Virus record (IMG/VR): IMGVR_UViG_3300011422_000016
Location: 1-27,017 of that record
DNA length: 27,017 bases
Reading direction: 5' to 3' (one strand)
Source: a virus
Lineage: Duplodnaviria > Caudoviricetes
Both the position numbers and the translations under genes were made by a program. Below are positions 1-27,017 of the stretch, piece after piece. The notes beneath the pieces are model-generated. The model searched no databases. It was not told where the DNA came from and saw only the letters and a program-made list of their open reading frames with translations. Positions within the stretch are counted from its first letter, which is position 1. The number at the start of each line of letters is the position of its first letter.

Positions 1-1497
1 TACCTGGAAATCCTTCATCGTGAAGGTATCGAAGTAAAACACATGATATGGGACACGATGATTATGTCTCATATGTGTGACGAGAATGTCTTTAGCCACA
101 AGCTAGAGAGTCTCTACCAACTCCACTTCGGAACCGATGCAGCGAAAGAAAAAAAGGCTCTCCGTGAAATCACGAAGAACCTTGGTGGATGGGAGAAGGT
201 TCCCCCACAAGTTATGGACGTGTACGCCTGTAAAGACGCACTAATGACTTGGAACCTCTACAAGATTTTCAAGCTGCGAATGGAGCAGGAGGATCAGCTT
301 GAACTCTATCCCGCCGAAGAAAAATTCTTGCGATGCCTAGGAGAGATTGAGCGGAACGGGATTCTGATCGACATTGAAATGTGTTGTCAGCTTTCCCGAG
401 ATGCTCAAGCTCGTCTAGTAGAACTTCAAGCTTCTCTCGGATTTGATCCGATGAAGCCGAGCCAACTGGCGCATAGGTTGTACGAAGTTCCACCAGTAGG
501 TCTTGGACTTTTACCTGTAGGTCTGTCGAAGCGGACACTCCATGCTCCCATCACTCTCGCCAACGGCAAGACTATCAAGAGCATTCCTATCATGGACGAG
601 CCTAACCTGTCAAGGTATTCTGACCCTGTAGTGTCCGAAGTGTTAGAGTATAGGGGGTTAGTGAAGGCGATTTCTACGTGGTATGACAAGTTCCCACCCA
701 TCGCAGACACTCAGGGGCGACTTCACGCCAACTTCAAGCAGCATGGCACCCGTACCTCACGCCTCTCATGCGAGCTTCCAAACCTCCAACAAATACCGAG
801 AGAATCTTTAGACTCGGCTCCCGTAAAGAAGGTTTTCCGTGCCCGACCAGGATACGAACTCTGGGAATTCGACTACTCACAGATTGAGTATCGCTTGGCA
901 GGAGTTTACGCCGAAGAGGAAGCTATTATTGAAGGCTACAGGTCTGGTGTTGACTTCCATACTCTTACGGCTAACCGAATGGGAGTTGATCGAAACAGTG
1001 TTGCTAAGCATGTTAATTTCGCTATATCTTATGGCAGCGGTCCGAATGGATTGGTCGAAACCTTCTGGAAGTTAGGCCGTAAAGTCATCACCTACGACGA
1101 AGCGAAAGATTTGATTGATAGCTTCTGGGATAACTACCCGAAGCTACAGCAGGTCGTGAAGTATACTGAGCAAGTTGCTCGGACTCGCAAATACATCAAG
1201 ATGTGGGATGGTCGGAGGCGTCGTTTCCGCTTTCCTACAGAAGCACACAAAGGCTTTAACTCTCTGATTCAGGGCGGAGCATTTCGGATCATCCATCAAG
1301 GGATTCGGAATATCCATGAGATTCCTGACAGGGAGTTCTTTATTGTCAACCAGGTCCACGACTCTGTTTGGGCAGAGATTCCTGTAGACAATGCTGATGT
1401 ATGTAAAAAGCAGATCAAGGACTGTCTTGAATGGACAGGAGATAAGTTCGTCCTAGAGTTCCCAACGGAAGAAAAGAGATTGTGGCCGCATGGTTGA
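1..1497 (+). CDS. polA: Phage DNA polymerase, family A (PolA-like), 5' truncated by the window edge
   Basis: Frame is open from base 1 (YLEILHREGIEVKHMIWDTM...). Contains ExoIII-like YACKD, TRTSRLSCELPNLQQIP, motif A FDYSQIEYR, motif B KHVNFAISYG, NSLIQG and motif C VHDS. Confidence 0.96.
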   Translation, partial: YLEILHREGIEVKHMIWDTMIMSHMCDENVFSHKLESLYQLHFGTDAAKEKKALREITKNLGGWEKVPPQVMDVYACKDALMTWNLYKIFKLRMEQEDQLELYPAEEKFLRCLGEIERNGILIDIEMCCQLSRDAQARLVELQASLGFDPMKPSQLAHRLYEVPPVGLGLLPVGLSKRTLHAPITLANGKTIKSIPIMDEPNLSRYSDPVVSEVLEYRGLVKAISTWYDKFPPIADTQGRLHANFKQHGTRTSRLSCELPNLQQIPRESLDSAPVKKVFRARPGYELWEFDYSQIEYRLAGVYAEEEAIIEGYRSGVDFHTLTANRMGVDRNSVAKHVNFAISYGSGPNGLVETFWKLGRKVITYDEAKDLIDSFWDNYPKLQQVVKYTEQVARTRKYIKMWDGRRRRFRFPTEAHKGFNSLIQGGAFRIIHQGIRNIHEIPDREFFIVNQVHDSVWAEIPVDNADVCKKQIKDCLEWTGDKFVLEFPTEEKRLWPHG

Positions 1498-2687: not shown

Positions 2688-2789
2688 CTACTTGATTAAC
2701 AGCACCCACATAATTAGAAACACGATGATCGCGATTGCAACCATTGCGAGAACCCAAATAGCGTTGATCTGACCAGATTCGTCAGTCAT
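2688..2789 (-). CDS. Small single-TM membrane protein (33 aa), possible holin-like or lysis accessory protein
   Basis: Hand translation MTDESGQINAIWVLAMVAIAIIVFLIMWVLLIK*. ATG overlaps the endolysin 3' end, with AGGTGG upstream. Below the ORF-track cutoff. Confidence 0.65.
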   Translation of the reverse strand: MTDESGQINAIWVLAMVAIAIIVFLIMWVLLIK

Positions 2790-3426
2790 TTGGTCCACCT
2801 TGGTAGCTAGCATCTCCGTAACAGTAAACAAAGCCGTCCTCCGTTAGTAGTCGATAACCATCCCCTGTGCTTGTGCAATGAGCACCTACAACTCTATCTC
2901 CGGGGATAATATCTGGGCCGTCCTGATCCGCTGCACCTGATCCGAAGAAACGTGCATCACCGTAAGTGAATACACCACCATCTTCGGCAAAGATTGTATA
3001 CCCTAGATCACTTGGCGTGTTTTCAATTGTAACTGCTGGCTGGTTAAGCACTCCGATAGCCTCCTGCTTCGGATAGACAACAAACACGCCTTTATCTACA
3101 GCTACATGAATGTGGTCATGGTGATCTGCTACAGCATACTTCGGAACTTGGTGTTCGTTCTTAATGTTGTAGACAACTTGTGGTCCTGCATAGATCAGTT
3201 CATGTAGCCTACGTTCTACAGGGTAGAATGCAAAGAACACGTCGGCCAGTTCATTGCTATCCCAACTTGGTTTCGGCCCAGCAATGTCAATTGCCAACCC
3301 TTTTCCGTTAGTCCCTTGAGAACTATGTCGGCTGCCAGCGTTGTTTGTAACGGTACACGTTACTCTATGAGAGACTCCTGAGTCCCGCATGTATTGCTGG
3401 AGACACTGAACTTCTTTGCTGAGCAT
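2782..3426 (-). CDS. Endolysin: Zn-peptidase (M15-like) catalytic domain plus C-terminal cell-wall-binding repeats
   Basis: SRH...GLAIDI and HHDHIHV metal-binding motifs; two repeats GYTIFAEDGGVFTYGDARFFGS and GYRLLTEDGFVYCYGDASYQG. Confidence 0.82.
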   Translation of the reverse strand: MLSKEVQCLQQYMRDSGVSHRVTCTVTNNAGSRHSSQGTNGKGLAIDIAGPKPSWDSNELADVFFAFYPVERRLHELIYAGPQVVYNIKNEHQVPKYAVADHHDHIHVAVDKGVFVVYPKQEAIGVLNQPAVTIENTPSDLGYTIFAEDGGVFTYGDARFFGSGAADQDGPDIIPGDRVVGAHCTSTGDGYRLLTEDGFVYCYGDASYQGGPND

Positions 3427-3912
3427 TTACAACTCCACATGCCAAGGCTCAAACTTTTTACCTGGCGCTCTAGTTAGCATCGGGAATTTAAGACCGAACT
3501 GAGCAGCATTTGCATGTGCCCATTGTCTTGCTGCGTCATCTGCATAAGCCAAGTCAGCCGCTGTACCTCTCTCATGTTTTGAGTGTCCAGGTTTCGCAGC
3601 TAAATGAGGCTTCTGTTTATAGAGAGCAGCCTGTTGTGCCGTACTTCTCTTACCGGAGGTTACTTTGATCTTTCCACCACTAGCAGCGATAAGTTTCTGT
3701 AAGGCAGTATTAAATACCGCTTCAGTGGCGTTCCCTGGTGACCCTAGAGCCTGCGTACCGGAGGGGGATGGACGCACACCGACGCCAGGTGCAGATAGGG
3801 GCGCAGAGCGAGCCACAGGGGTGTCAGGAATAGCCATAAGGCCCGATAATGCCTGCTGCACCATCTGTTTCGACCGTAACCGTCTTTGAGCGAGGGCTTC
3901 TTTACTTTCCAC
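3427..3912 (-). CDS. M15-family (VanY / D-Ala-D-Ala-type) Zn peptidase, probably virion-associated
   Basis: VTSGKRS...QQAALY, AAKPGHSKHERGTAAD and EPWHVE motifs. Likely GTG start at 3912 (GAGGAAGA upstream) rather than 4020. Confidence 0.85.
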   Translation of the reverse strand: MESKEALAQRRLRSKQMVQQALSGLMAIPDTPVARSAPLSAPGVGVRPSPSGTQALGSPGNATEAVFNTALQKLIAASGGKIKVTSGKRSTAQQAALYKQKPHLAAKPGHSKHERGTAADLAYADDAARQWAHANAAQFGLKFPMLTRAPGKKFEPWHVEL

Positions 3913-6643
3913 TCTTCCTCTTTTCATTGCTCTTCCGAATGAAGTTCTGCAATGAATCCTGTTGACGACGTAGTTCAGATTGCTTCTGTGTTTCCCCAAC
4001 CTCTTGCATACTCGCACCAATAAGCCAGTTCAAGAACGTAATTGCTGGGTCCTTACCTGACTTACCTTCAATATCTTCCTTCAGTTTCCTACCTGTCCGA
4101 ATCTGAGGAATAATATCTGTAGCGAACTTACTGTTGTCCTTGATCGGGGCACCACTGAACAACGTCTTTCCTGTAGCATACTCAAACGGCATCCGAATGA
4201 ATGGACTGGTTTGCGACAGTAGTTGTGCTACGTTCTCAGGTGCAGTTCCAGATACGTTCCCGATCGGATCGGTCATTGGGTTTGGTGGAGTCCAGTAGAT
4301 AGCGTTCTTACCTTCACCTTCACCACGAAGGCTAACTCCTGCCATTTCCCGAATCCACTTCGGAATGATTTGGCCTGTCTCGTTCTTATCTGTCCCTAGC
4401 AAAGTTTCAATTGCACGCTGACCCTTCGGTGCTACAGCTAAACGACCTGGACGCATTGCTGCCATTTCAAGCTGTAGTGGAACATTCTTTCGGAGCCACG
4501 TATAGTACGGAACTACACGTCGCATCGTGTTTTGTTCAAAGGGAGTCAGATCACCATAGTCAATGTTGAACTTACGAACCCGAGCACCTGCTCTTTCAGA
4601 CGCCTTAATTAGTTCAGGGATACTCTTTGCGTGAGCACCCTCTTTCTTATAGGCATCAATGAAGTGAGCTAGACGGGTAACATCTTCACGCTTCTCGGAG
4701 AAACCCCGAACCCCTGACTTTACGGCTCCAATTGCACCCTTGACTTTGCTTGCGTCACCCGACAATTCAGTAGGATAGAAACCTGACTTACCCCCTGCCC
4801 GCTTGTAGTCATCCCAAATTTGTCTGTAGGTTAACTGTCGATCCCCGATGCGAACAGTACCTTTGAGATTGTCTCGTTTGAACAAAACACTCATAGCCTG
4901 CTTGTAACGAAGAGGATTGACTACACCATCCTCATAGTTCAGCACCATATCACCAGCCATATTACGAACGTGGTGACCTGGATTGGCTACAGTCTGTAGG
5001 AACTTAACTTCACTAAGGGACTTGTCAAAGAAACGAAGCATCTTGTTTGCTGCGTAGGGGTTATGCTCCAGCTTCTTGTAGTATTCGATGGACTTGACAA
5101 TTTCCTCAGGGAACCACACATTCTCATCTGTAGCCAAACCCTTTGGCTGAGCTAAACCAAGCCCCTTTCCAGGAGTCCTGCCCTTTGGAAACTTGACACC
5201 GAACTCACCAATAAGGCCCTTCTCAAACTCACGTCCAGCCCTTGCACGATTGAACTTTGCATCGTACAGTTTCAGAGCTTCAACCGAATCTTCTACAGGA
5301 TTGAGTCCAGCTTCCTTCGCTTCACGAAGTGTCTTTTTCTCACCTGCCCTGCGAGCTTCCTTGAATTTCTTGACGTTCGGATTCTTCCAGTTCTTGTAGT
5401 AATGATAGGCGTAATCATCAAGCTGCCCACCCTTGGGAATTGTTCCAAGGTTGTATTCAGAGTTGTTACCGAACTCCTTATAAAGAGTCCGCATCTTTTC
5501 CTGTGCCTCTCCGAGATTAGCCCCCTTTGTACCTAACTCCCCTGCAAGATCAGTTCCTTCGTCAAGGGCATACTGTAACCGAATACGATCAGCTTTTGTC
5601 AGATCGGCAAAAGTCTTGTCGTAGAGTTTCGCTGCATCCTCATGGACAGACACACCAAAACTCTCCGCCATTCGACGGATCGTATTTGTTTCACCTGGGA
5701 ACATACGAGAAGTCTGGAAGTGATTACGAACTTCTCCAACACCTGGAGCCTTTCCAATTACCTCTCCAAGTTTAGCACCACCCTTGTAGAGTTTCTCACT
5801 CCCAACAACTTCCTTGCCCATGATGTTAAGACCGATGCGACCCTTGTTACCAGCCTTGAAAGCTTCTTTCGCTTTATCAGCCTCCTTCAACGCAAAGGAG
5901 TGCATAGCTTCCTCAGCAACCTGCTTTGCAGACTTAGCTCCCTTAGCACCCTTGGAAAGTGCTTCTAGTGGATTAGCAGCTTTGTCTCCGAGAAGAATGT
6001 CTTTCAGAATGGTTGTCTTGGCTACGTCCGCAGCAGTTTTCCCGATCTTAGCAGCCTCTTCACTACGTCTTGCTACAGTGTAGGCTTTGGCTCCTTCGGA
6101 AGCTATCTTTGCAGCCTTGGGAGCTTTAGTAAGTCCAGCACTAAGATAAGTTGTGGGATCAAGAGCGACGTCACCAACAAAACCACCAATACCACGAACA
6201 AGTTTATTCTTGACACCCGCATCTTCCAACACATCGGAATATGTTTTGTAGTCACGACCATGAGTTGCGGCAGCCACATTAGAAACGGCGCCACCAAGTC
6301 CTGCAATCGTGTTCTTTAACTGTTGGCTAGAACCAGCCCCCTTGTTTGCACTCCCCTGGTCTTTCTTGTTCTGCATAAGAGAAGCATGAGCAAAGCCAGA
6401 AGTCAGCGCACCACCTACAGACAGTGTACCAAAAATTTTGTCGATAAGAGTAGGTTTATCTGCCTTCTCAGGCTTTCCACCACGGCCTTCTACCCGACCT
6501 CTTTGCCGAGTTACCTGGGCTTGAAGTCTCTTGGTATCAGCCTTGTCAGGATTAGATTTTCCACCACCCCTATTAGGGACACTGACATTTCGAGTGGTTG
6601 TCTTTTTCCTGTCTGGCTTGCTTACATCCTTCTTCTCAGCCAC
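3902..6643 (-). CDS. Large internal virion / DNA-ejection protein (913 aa)
   Basis: Last and largest of three helical Ala/Gly/Lys-rich genes after the nozzle. GFVGDVALDPTTYL, NPGHHVRN and DYGDLTPFEQ..MRRVVPYYTW motifs resemble podophage ejection / large polyvalent proteins. Confidence 0.7.
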   Translation of the reverse strand: MAEKKDVSKPDRKKTTTRNVSVPNRGGGKSNPDKADTKRLQAQVTRQRGRVEGRGGKPEKADKPTLIDKIFGTLSVGGALTSGFAHASLMQNKKDQGSANKGAGSSQQLKNTIAGLGGAVSNVAAATHGRDYKTYSDVLEDAGVKNKLVRGIGGFVGDVALDPTTYLSAGLTKAPKAAKIASEGAKAYTVARRSEEAAKIGKTAADVAKTTILKDILLGDKAANPLEALSKGAKGAKSAKQVAEEAMHSFALKEADKAKEAFKAGNKGRIGLNIMGKEVVGSEKLYKGGAKLGEVIGKAPGVGEVRNHFQTSRMFPGETNTIRRMAESFGVSVHEDAAKLYDKTFADLTKADRIRLQYALDEGTDLAGELGTKGANLGEAQEKMRTLYKEFGNNSEYNLGTIPKGGQLDDYAYHYYKNWKNPNVKKFKEARRAGEKKTLREAKEAGLNPVEDSVEALKLYDAKFNRARAGREFEKGLIGEFGVKFPKGRTPGKGLGLAQPKGLATDENVWFPEEIVKSIEYYKKLEHNPYAANKMLRFFDKSLSEVKFLQTVANPGHHVRNMAGDMVLNYEDGVVNPLRYKQAMSVLFKRDNLKGTVRIGDRQLTYRQIWDDYKRAGGKSGFYPTELSGDASKVKGAIGAVKSGVRGFSEKREDVTRLAHFIDAYKKEGAHAKSIPELIKASERAGARVRKFNIDYGDLTPFEQNTMRRVVPYYTWLRKNVPLQLEMAAMRPGRLAVAPKGQRAIETLLGTDKNETGQIIPKWIREMAGVSLRGEGEGKNAIYWTPPNPMTDPIGNVSGTAPENVAQLLSQTSPFIRMPFEYATGKTLFSGAPIKDNSKFATDIIPQIRTGRKLKEDIEGKSGKDPAITFLNWLIGASMQEVGETQKQSELRRQQDSLQNFIRKSNEKRKSGK

Positions 6644-25900: not shown

Positions 25901-25929
25901 TTGACAAAAGGTTAACTGTGTGATACAGT
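25901..25929 (+). promoter_or_regulatory. Strong sigma-70 (SigA) rightward promoter, probably leaderless
   Basis: TTGACA (25901-25906), 17-nt spacer, TGa-TACAGT (-10 at 25924-25929), AT-rich UP-like tract upstream; ATG lies 6 nt downstream of the -10. Confidence 0.85.
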
Positions 25930-25935
25930 GACGCA

Positions 25936-26082
25936 ATGCCACAAGGGAGAGATTACCTCGTTAGGGGGAAGGTCAATTTCGAGTTGAAATTGAAGCTCGA
26001 TAAATACCGTAAAGTTTTCGGTGTGACCGAATCTCAGATCGTAAATATGGCCCTGGAGAAGTTTCTAAATGAGAGAAAATGA
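25936..26082 (+). CDS. Ribbon-helix-helix (CopG/Arc/MetJ-type) DNA-binding protein (48 aa)
   Basis: Hand translation MPQGRDYLVRGKVNFELKLKLDKYRKVFGVTESQIVNMALEKFLNERK*: beta strand, helix, G-x-T-x-S turn, helix. ATGA-coupled to the next gene. Missing from the ORF track. Confidence 0.8.
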   Translation: MPQGRDYLVRGKVNFELKLKLDKYRKVFGVTESQIVNMALEKFLNERK

Positions 26083-26726
26083 CTGAGAAGAAGAGAATTC
26101 TCATTTGGTGGACGAACAACAATGGGAAGATGGGTGTTAAAGTTGACATTGTCCTTAACATCTTCCCTACAGTAATTCTCGGTGATGATATCGTACAGTT
26201 AGATGCGTTCGCCCCAACTATGCATCTCTTCATCAAAGAGTTTCGCCTAGCCTACACGACAGAAGAACTTATTTCATATCTGGAAGATACCATCGAAAGC
26301 TATATGGCGAATATCTATCCAGAGTCGTCGTATGCTACTCGTGAAAAAGCAGCAGAAACACTTGCACCACACCTAATCGACTTCCTAACTCCATACATCG
26401 AACACGTTCGTGAATGTGGGGTTACGGAACCTCCCGAGGAGAAATCTAGTTTAAGTGCGGTTGACCAAATTCTTAAAGAGTCTTACCTCCCCGGACTCAA
26501 GGAACAGTTATCTGCTGACCTTAATACTTCTATTTGGGGTGACGGGGGGAATCCTACCACTCTTGTTGCAAAACCCGCTTCCCACCACGCACCCGGAAGC
26601 GGTTTCGACTTATCAATGGACGCCCACATCAAAGCCCACCAGCATTATTACGACCTACTCAAAGAGTCCTACGATAACATCCCCAAAACCATTGCCAGCA
26701 AACTTCCAAAGGGAGATGAATCTTGA
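26079..26726 (+). CDS. Hypothetical early protein (215 aa) containing a capsid-N-terminus-like segment
   Basis: ATGA coupling to the RHH gene; includes LSAVDQILKESYLPGLKEQL. Confidence 0.7.
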   Translation: MTEKKRILIWWTNNNGKMGVKVDIVLNIFPTVILGDDIVQLDAFAPTMHLFIKEFRLAYTTEELISYLEDTIESYMANIYPESSYATREKAAETLAPHLIDFLTPYIEHVRECGVTEPPEEKSSLSAVDQILKESYLPGLKEQLSADLNTSIWGDGGNPTTLVAKPASHHAPGSGFDLSMDAHIKAHQHYYDLLKESYDNIPKTIASKLPKGDES

Positions 26727-27017
26727 CAGGTACTATGAGCAACTCCGACTCAACGCAGAGAAAGAAAGGGTATCTCGCAGTAAATCCGTTAGAAGCACAA
26801 CTACTACAGTGGTGCCTCCAAAGAGTCAGCGATCAAGTGCTAAGTCCGGCAAATGTTCAGACCAAGCTAGCACTTATGAGCAAATTAGAAGATATGAAAA
26901 TGGTGGTTCCTACGAACGAGGAACCAACCCTAGGTACTTTGGTTTCTATCAGTTTGATAGAGGTACTTGGGAAGCTAACGGCGGAAATCCAGAAACTTGG
27001 GGTTCAGCTAGCCGAGA
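26455..27017 (+). CDS. Membrane-anchored or secreted Rpf-like (resuscitation-promoting factor) lytic transglycosylase, 3' truncated by the window edge
   Basis: Frame open from GTG 26455 to the end. It reads MRLTKFLKSL..., a hydrophobic YLLTLILLFGVTGGILPLLL stretch, a Thr/Pro/Ser-rich linker, then YEQIRRYENGGSY...RYFGFYQFDRGTWEANGG...SASR, matching the Rpf pattern W..IA.CESGG.....GYYG..QF...TW...GG......ASR. GAGGAG lies 13 nt upstream. Confidence 0.85.
   Translation, partial: MRLTKFLKSLTSPDSRNSYLLTLILLFGVTGGILPLLLQNPLPTTHPEAVSTYQWTPTSKPTSIITTYSKSPTITSPKPLPANFQREMNLDRYYEQLRLNAEKERVSRSKSVRSTTTTVVPPKSQRSSAKSGKCSDQASTYEQIRRYENGGSYERGTNPRYFGFYQFDRGTWEANGGNPETWGSASR
26735..27017 (+). CDS. Possible overlapping hypothetical protein (at least 94 aa, 3' truncated)
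   Basis: ATG 8 nt after the stop of 26079..26726; open to the window end (MSNSDSTQRKKGYLAVNPLEAQLLQWCLQRV...EVLGKLTAEIQKLGVQLAE); lies wholly inside the Rpf ORF in another frame. Confidence 0.4.
   Translation, partial: MSNSDSTQRKKGYLAVNPLEAQLLQWCLQRVSDQVLSPANVQTKLALMSKLEDMKMVVPTNEEPTLGTLVSISLIEVLGKLTAEIQKLGVQLAE

Follow-up and report, generated by a model that had tools for sequence, protein, structure and literature searches.

The 27,017-nt window, which is the whole stretch of DNA that was analyzed, comes from a tailed phage and carries near one end an Rpf-like gene, here called B, that lies wholly over two other open reading frames (ORFs) of the same strand, namely ORF A (-1 frame) and ORF C (+1 frame). 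B is a real, intact gene for a predicted Rpf-type lytic transglycosylase. Judged by searches of viral sequence, the enzyme itself is common, and the unusual part is the full overlap, which is kept in a second phage. The features of the locus are given in Table 1.

Table 1. Features of the Rpf locus, numbered as in the window
Feature	Position	Strand	Evidence or remark
SigA-type promoter, TTGACA-17-TACAGT, extended -10 TG	25901..25929	+	10/12 consensus matches
First gene, 48 aa, weakly RelB/repressor-like	25936..26082	+	RelB E 0.011
ORF A, 215-aa ORFan, -1 frame relative to B	26079..26726	+	last 90 codons under B codons 1-90
GAGGAG, likely ribosome-binding site of gene B	26436..26441	+	13 nt before GTG (long); anti-SD duplex -8.7 kcal/mol
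Rpf-like gene B, 209 aa	26455..27017, on to 27084 (L001 5523-6152)	+	L001 completion, PF06737, model
Predicted signal anchor (hydrophobic residues 19-38)	26509..26568	+	helix 13-37 in model
Thr/Pro/Ser linker, residues 40-83	26572..26703	+	C-rich ORF A third positions
Frame junction AAGGGAG, 7 nt, TTGA (C start TTG over A stop TGA)	26709..26726	+	
ORF C, 121 aa, +1 frame	26723..27017 and beyond	+	covers rest of B; protein function doubtful
PF06737 (Rpf) domain, residues 138-209	26866..27017; last 22 codons past window	+	
Putative catalytic Glu148, GAA	26896..26898	+	alignment with RpfB/RpfE motif Glu

A sequence-only reading of the window had claimed an ORF from GTG 26455, and this frame was confirmed to be open to the window end. 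The IMG/VR locus L001, which is 100% identical to the window over 6085 nt and extends it by 630 nt, completes the protein with the C-terminus EEQDRVFATTYARRGSQPWGVC and a stop codon. The truncating stop just past the window that the reading had named as a threat to its claim is absent, and the domain is not truncated since L001 completes the ORF at 209 aa. The check that it had proposed for the full ORF also came out in its favor: the 209-aa protein scored 40 bits with PF06737 against a gathering cut-off of 27 (21.6 bits for the window-cut piece) and is predicted to have a lysozyme/transglycosylase fold. The PDB sequences matched were RpfE, RpfB, and RpfC. The AlphaFold model has a mean pLDDT of 75, with 82-97 by block in the domain, and the best 13 rows among the Foldseek matches listed were all RpfE, RpfC, or RpfB. 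The model domain fits RpfB, RpfC, and RpfE with an rmsd of 2.0-2.4 Å over about 70 columns. The NCBIfam RpfC equivalog NF046107 gave 28.4 bits, far below its cut-off of 200. The residue singled out as putatively catalytic was borne out by alignment, with E148 opposite the motif Glu and unchanged in all 39 of the 39 subfamily members aligned. Where the family usually has a Cys just before this Glu, B has Tyr147; the C-terminal C209 is present and, judging from its place in the protein sequence, C134 could substitute. In M. luteus Rpf, the Cys pair is Cys53/Cys114, and single Cys changes cost only part of the activity according to the review PMC11356341. Strain changes in the Rpf domain were mostly silent in B, showing purifying selection on the predicted domain. 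Since B is a 209-aa ORF bounded by stops, it is not embedded in a tape-measure gene, and the description of a stand-alone Rpf-type enzyme in the non-virion arm is supported.

The minus strand of the window carries the genes for terminase, a P22-like portal, and an SU10-like capsid and adaptor, and the plus strand carries the one for DNA polymerase A. The phage also encodes WhiB (PF02467), and its host is therefore likely an actinobacterium. The WhiB gene (2291-2602, -) does not share a strand with the polymerase arm and has an antisense overlap with a 79-aa ORF (2149-2388, +). Of the strong SigA-type promoter claimed earlier, the site itself is present and directed away from both the HTH and the terS-like genes, but a scan found 4 such sites compared to 2.5 in shuffles, a count that by itself is not significant. 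The ATG of the first gene is 7 nt past the -10 box, its stop overlaps the ATG of ORF A, and its transcript is possibly leaderless. The operon continues 3′ of the Rpf gene with replication-arm genes, namely tRNA-Lys, an exonuclease, and a helicase; the tRNA-Lys(TTT) was located at 763-836 (+) of locus L011. Strain contigs have 88-108-nt blocks 3′ of gene D swapped for other sequence (L001 6310-6572), which, from the contig comparison, is mosaic recombination adjoining the Rpf gene. Sequencing-read comparison covered eight runs; among the rows listed, X9, X10, X19, and X22 had zero differences and X13 and X18 had zero differences over L001 5393-6085.

The placement of B on the strand opposite to virion and lysis genes, also claimed earlier, stands for the virion genes, but the lysis genes are identified by inference only. 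The late arm contains a VanY-type peptidase domain (PF02557) at 3427-3951 (-), directly after a 913-aa late gene, which is possibly an ejected wall-cutting virion protein. A putative endolysin at 2782-3426 (-) had no match in Pfam and NCBIfam searches and weak PHROG matches to tape-measure segments, and a search for its relatives (0/5) was uninformative. Its DGGVFTYGDARFFG repeats may resemble Acidimicrobiia wall-binding repeats, a possible host lead. A 33-aa hydrophobic ORF lies directly downstream, and together the terminal peptidase-like gene and this ORF would resemble a lysis pair.

The enzyme was found widely. Searching 1.84 billion representatives without a profile gave 1246 relatives at E 0.001 or better. 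An N-terminal hydrophobic stretch is present in 123 of the 150 listed and in 50 of the best 55, in line with the predicted export-type architecture that had been proposed; 12 of the best 55 have a lipobox-like motif. In IMG/VR, 349 stretches encode relatives. The best 80 of these stretches plus six loci, with duplicates dropped, gave a set of 76 viral Rpf genes with automatic starts, a few of which are wrong (L013, L074). In this set, 74 genes are stand-alone, and 69 of the 74 have a hydrophobic N-terminus. Stand-alone Rpfs with signal peptides are also carried by the cultured phages prophi79-1 (gp102), Dorin (gp28), BRock (gp43), and Weasels2 (gp46). The implied rarity of B did not survive these counts: a stand-alone exported phage Rpf is true but ordinary, given the cultured-phage cases and the 74 stand-alone viral genes. 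We also noted an Rpf-like secreted gene in a Saccharibacteria MAG (L020 5824-6693; near-identical MAG, L021 5818-6693) and a viral secreted Rpf-like gene (L017 4650-5776) followed directly by two WhiB-like ORFs, with the motif judged by eye.

The hydrophobic N-terminal segment and the Thr/Pro/Ser linker of the earlier reading were both recovered. The 15-residue Kyte-Doolittle mean is 2.41 from residue 20, the N-region before this stretch is basic, and S, T, and P make up 25 of the 44 linker residues. Besides the long linker, the model contains a helix of about 29 residues. Gene B has no lipobox, and no clear Ala-X-Ala cleavage site was seen by eye after the hydrophobic stretch; the nearest candidate, A49, is Val in one strain. 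In one strain, seven bases differ between SD and start codon; GAGGAG and GTG are both retained there, and B codon 2 has changed silently. Two other ways of making the domain were considered. A start at Met88, the only other ATG, was rejected with an SD spacing of 0 nt. An RF2-like +1 frameshift at the A stop, assessed by eye, was dropped as the P-site codon cannot re-pair and G013, the second phage, differs.

One alternative is that the B N-terminus is a shadow of ORF A, with Rpf made signal-less from Met88 or a frameshift, or a decaying relic, and with C empty. Speaking for a genuine B N-terminus, third positions of ORF A are T in 13 of 21 codons over the hydrophobic stretch and C in 25 of 48 over the linker; for comparison, C makes up 19% of third positions in mostly late training genes and 27% in early genes. 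B codons 1-89 have a shadow-like codon score of -0.19 per codon, their synonymous score (-0.169) equals the +1 shadow mean, and 9 of 146 +1 shadow blocks of the genome contain an equally hydrophobic window. All four strain changes in the linker alter B. Changes that are silent in A but alter the B linker count against the B N-terminus, as do the codon scores. On the other side, when the A protein was held fixed and its codons were resampled synonymously, frame B was open in 1-2% of trials and an equally S/T/P-rich linker arose in 37 of 20,000 with early usage (P 0.002) and in 0 of 40,000 with mostly late-gene usage. The 0-nt spacing at Met88, the near-constant signal in homologues, the mostly silent changes in the domain, and the G013 Rpf, which has its own SD, TTG start, and lipobox beneath the same overlap, also speak against a shadow, and we consider it improbable. 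Homologue architecture and the linker test suggest that the B N-terminus is probably genuine, and we are confident, though short of certain, that full-length gene B is real.

The overlap tests were modeled on the description available in Schlub et al. (PMC6188560), using a fixed stretch and not a pooled length distribution. For A over B, openness gave P 0.020 by permutation and 0.0014-0.014 by synonymous resampling (early 0.014, late 0.002). The corresponding values for B over A were 0.048 by codon permutation and 0.012-0.022. For C over B they were 0.074 and 0.18, neither of them significant. The codon score of ORF A in the overlap is +0.20 per codon, and four of the five strain changes there are silent in A. 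From these comparisons, A is real over the overlap and under purifying selection. No ORF A homologues were found beyond its own cluster, nor in 26 related records in a search that had no positive control. Residues 124-147 of ORF A (26448-26519, +; under Rpf codons 1-22) resemble the N-terminus of the phage’s own major capsid family. The only PHROG match of these residues is phrog_14242 (positions 4-27, E 0.028), and a capsid-N profile gave E 0.07; the likeness is weak and could be a capsid-arm mimic or relic.

A strong SD precedes ORF C with a spacing of 7 nt, and the stop of this ORF overlaps the ATG of gene D at 27085-27088. Searches found no homologues of ORF C, and it has neither an N-terminal hydrophobic stretch nor a lipoprotein signal. 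Of 14 base changes between strains in the B/C overlap, 8 are silent in B; in ORF C, 10 residues are altered compared to 2 silent changes, and no frame gains a stop. B thus looks like the constrained frame here, with the C protein unconstrained. In both phages, an open +1 frame over the Rpf domain costs little (P about 0.2), and such a frame is also long in L129 and L142. The reverse arrangement, a real C with Rpf as its shadow, was rejected with a probability of B being open, given C, of at most 1e-4. No structured RNA was detected at the start or junction in any of four stretches (z -0.84 to +0.54). The gene callers’ protein collection contained A and C and none of four start variants of B.

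Next, the layout was compared among 26 records related by capsid or terminase, eight of them near-complete. An Rpf gene is present in one of the 26, G013, whose capsid is 66% identical and which is among the eight; across these genomes the gene is dispensable within the phage group. The G013 locus is syntenic, with terS-like and HTH genes, a divergent TTGACA-17-TACCTT promoter, small first genes, and Rpf. The G013 Rpf has 195 aa, a lipobox, and a canonical GNGYYG motif; over 114 columns, its identity with B is 27%. Its -1 frame holds a 65-codon ORF with a TGATG-overlap start that shares the SD of the Rpf gene, and openness to codon 63 has P 0.018 (early usage) or 0.002 (late usage). This ORF terminates in ATGA, where a 156-codon +1 ORF begins that runs past the Rpf end. 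The protein collection contained the +1 product of G013, and the Rpf and -1 products, as tried, were absent. The same -1/+1 layout is thus shown in the sequences of both phages, and rests on these two. In the promoter-proximal operon of at least three of the relatives inspected, endolysin-like genes are found opposite the virion genes (L053 6509-7291, L052 1728-2528, and L029 622-1407, all -). Amidase-like and CHAP enzymes at the locus in relatives suggest that wall hydrolases of unlike chemistry replace one another in this slot.

The junction may also be kept in position. In the BLASTP alignment, L90-D91 of B stands opposite N64-E65 of G013, and these are the stop positions in both. An ungapped scan favors the register with matching junctions (score 35 vs 13), and six matrix settings gave the exact register in two cases, off by one in one case, and a differing register in three. 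AAAGG precedes both junctions (the G013 counterpart reads AAAGGT...ATGA) and comes from an aligned Arg written as AGG, used for 12-13% of Arg codons here. ORF C and the G013 +1 ORF have no detectable similarity (E 0.28). Among 34 low-GC stand-alone viral Rpf genes, only B and that of G013 place the -1 stop no more than two codons from the last +1 stop, by a criterion set after these two had been seen. A looser filter was passed by L129 and three GC-rich genes; L129 has no -1 ORF of at least 45 aa there. Searches with the G013 protein and alignment A3 found no phage with the layout beyond G013 among the best 80 of the 349 stretches. No overlapped phage Rpf genes were found in the literature covered, mainly non-subscription papers without supplements, and such overlaps may be noted in the annotation tables that accompany phage genome papers.

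The reading of function that we favor, at a little under an even chance, is that the product of the intact overlaid gene is tethered outside the cell at a low dose and loosens the peptidoglycan of the phage’s own host, keeping it growing. Transcription would come from the SigA-type promoter early in infection, since a host-type promoter and an operon leading into tRNA-Lys, exonuclease, and helicase make early expression probable. The weak GTG buried in translated ORF A would limit the Rpf dose. Ribosomes could pass from A to C to D through the stop/start overlaps, and the downstream replication-arm genes would then be translated regardless of Rpf. The predicted anchor would hold the enzyme on the outward side of the infected cell’s membrane, the long linker and the roughly 29-residue helix would lift the domain into the wall, and the loosened wall would promote growth of the infected host. 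A growth-keeping role fits the infection by Rhodococcus phage WC1, in which four of six host rpf genes showed increased expression and which the authors interpret as the phage preventing dormancy (PMC10986025), as well as speculation in PMC1796659; in the available text of these two papers, a stand-alone phage-encoded Rpf was not tested.

The main rival is a lysis helper, in which a tethered enzyme, likened to a signal-anchored endolysin, pre-weakens or finishes the wall at lysis and the overlap keeps its level low before then. The lysis role is kept open by the amidase or CHAP enzymes in the operon of the three relatives: signal-less endolysin-like proteins in L053 and L052 (phrog_1493, E 4e-22 and 9e-20) and a CHAP plus PG_binding protein in L029. 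The Rpf of BRock is three genes from an annotated endolysin, and the phage’s own endolysin is not firmly identified. We nevertheless regard this role as rather unlikely, as the host-type promoter and replication-arm neighbors suggest early expression and the late arm appears to end in its own lysis pair. A lipoprotein of the G013 type would not be expected to come free on membrane depolarization, which also counts against it. Another possible explanation is a released public good, in which cleaved enzyme or released muropeptides wake neighboring dormant hosts for the progeny. Rpfs do resuscitate dormant actinobacteria and need the catalytic Glu, according to the available parts of PMC11356341 and PMC1796659, and cultured-phage Rpfs have classical cleavable signals. 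In B there is no clear cleavage site, A49 varies to Val, and G013 has a lipobox, and this seems very improbable. The likely anchor of B and the lipobox of G013 make the infected cell a likelier target, and action on neighboring cells looks less likely.

Two readings of the overlap itself were considered. Pure compaction holds that the A tail and C are ordinary new proteins over an old Rpf, unconnected to it by regulation, in a genome of roughly 45 kb; it would be compatible with growth, lysis, or public-good functions alike. C has its strong SD, the A overlap is weakly capsid-like, and B third positions over C resemble second codon positions (lnL +8.7 here and +12.5 in G013, values not conditioned on amino acids). 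Conditioning on amino acids left a marginal signal in this phage (P 0.02-0.08) and none in G013 (P 0.5-0.8), and C lacks homologues and is dissimilar to its G013 counterpart; we regard compaction as possible but doubtful. The other reading is a “bypass lane,” in which coupled A and C, whose chief task would be translation itself, occlude the start of a potentially harmful wall hydrolase and carry ribosomes past it, giving dosing of a dormancy-breaking enzyme without polarity, with the layout kept while the overlying proteins diverged past recognition. This we hold unlikely. It would also hide such genes from annotation, and a junction kept at 27% identity would mean unusual selection on the overlap layout and not on the overlying proteins. 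Counts of phage Rpf genes based on called genes are likely too low, as in both phages the +1 ORF is present in the protein collection and the exact Rpf sequences tried are missing from it. Gene B is a further testable case for phage Rpfs countering host dormancy, for which the cultured phages offer easier cases.

Compared to known systems, B resembles the Rpfs of cultured actinophages (the RpfC-like protein of prophi79-1 and those of BRock, Weasels2, and Dorin) in being a small gene separate from the tape measure, with a predicted N-terminal signal and PF06737. In those phages the domain directly follows the signal and has an AxCESGG motif, whereas in B a linker of roughly 100 residues comes first, the C-terminal domain belongs to the ENGG/NPxxFGxYQF subfamily, and the gene is overlapped over its full length. 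Stops are frequent in both other frames of the BRock, Weasels2, and Dorin genes; they are few in the GC-rich prophi79-1 gene, which has no such junction. With the actinobacterial RpfB, RpfC, RpfE, and M. luteus Rpf, B shares the fold, the catalytic Glu, and a C-terminal Cys, but differs in having Tyr147 for Cys, a score far below the RpfC cut-off, and a phage origin. Mycobacteriophage tape-measure proteins contain Rpf “motif 1,” as described in the accessible part of PMC1796659. There the motif is part of a virion protein, whereas B is a separate gene of the non-virion arm with the same domain. The spanin gene Rz1 occupies the +1 frame, and annotation often overlooks it. The locus is not a two-component spanin, as C has no lipoprotein signal and the locus is in the non-virion arm. 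Like the Rz/Rz1 spanins, as far as the available part of PMC6139136 describes them, B is a same-strand, out-of-frame overlap involving an envelope protein; unlike them, the conserved gene B is the overlaid one, and it extends across the point where two ORFs of different frames meet.
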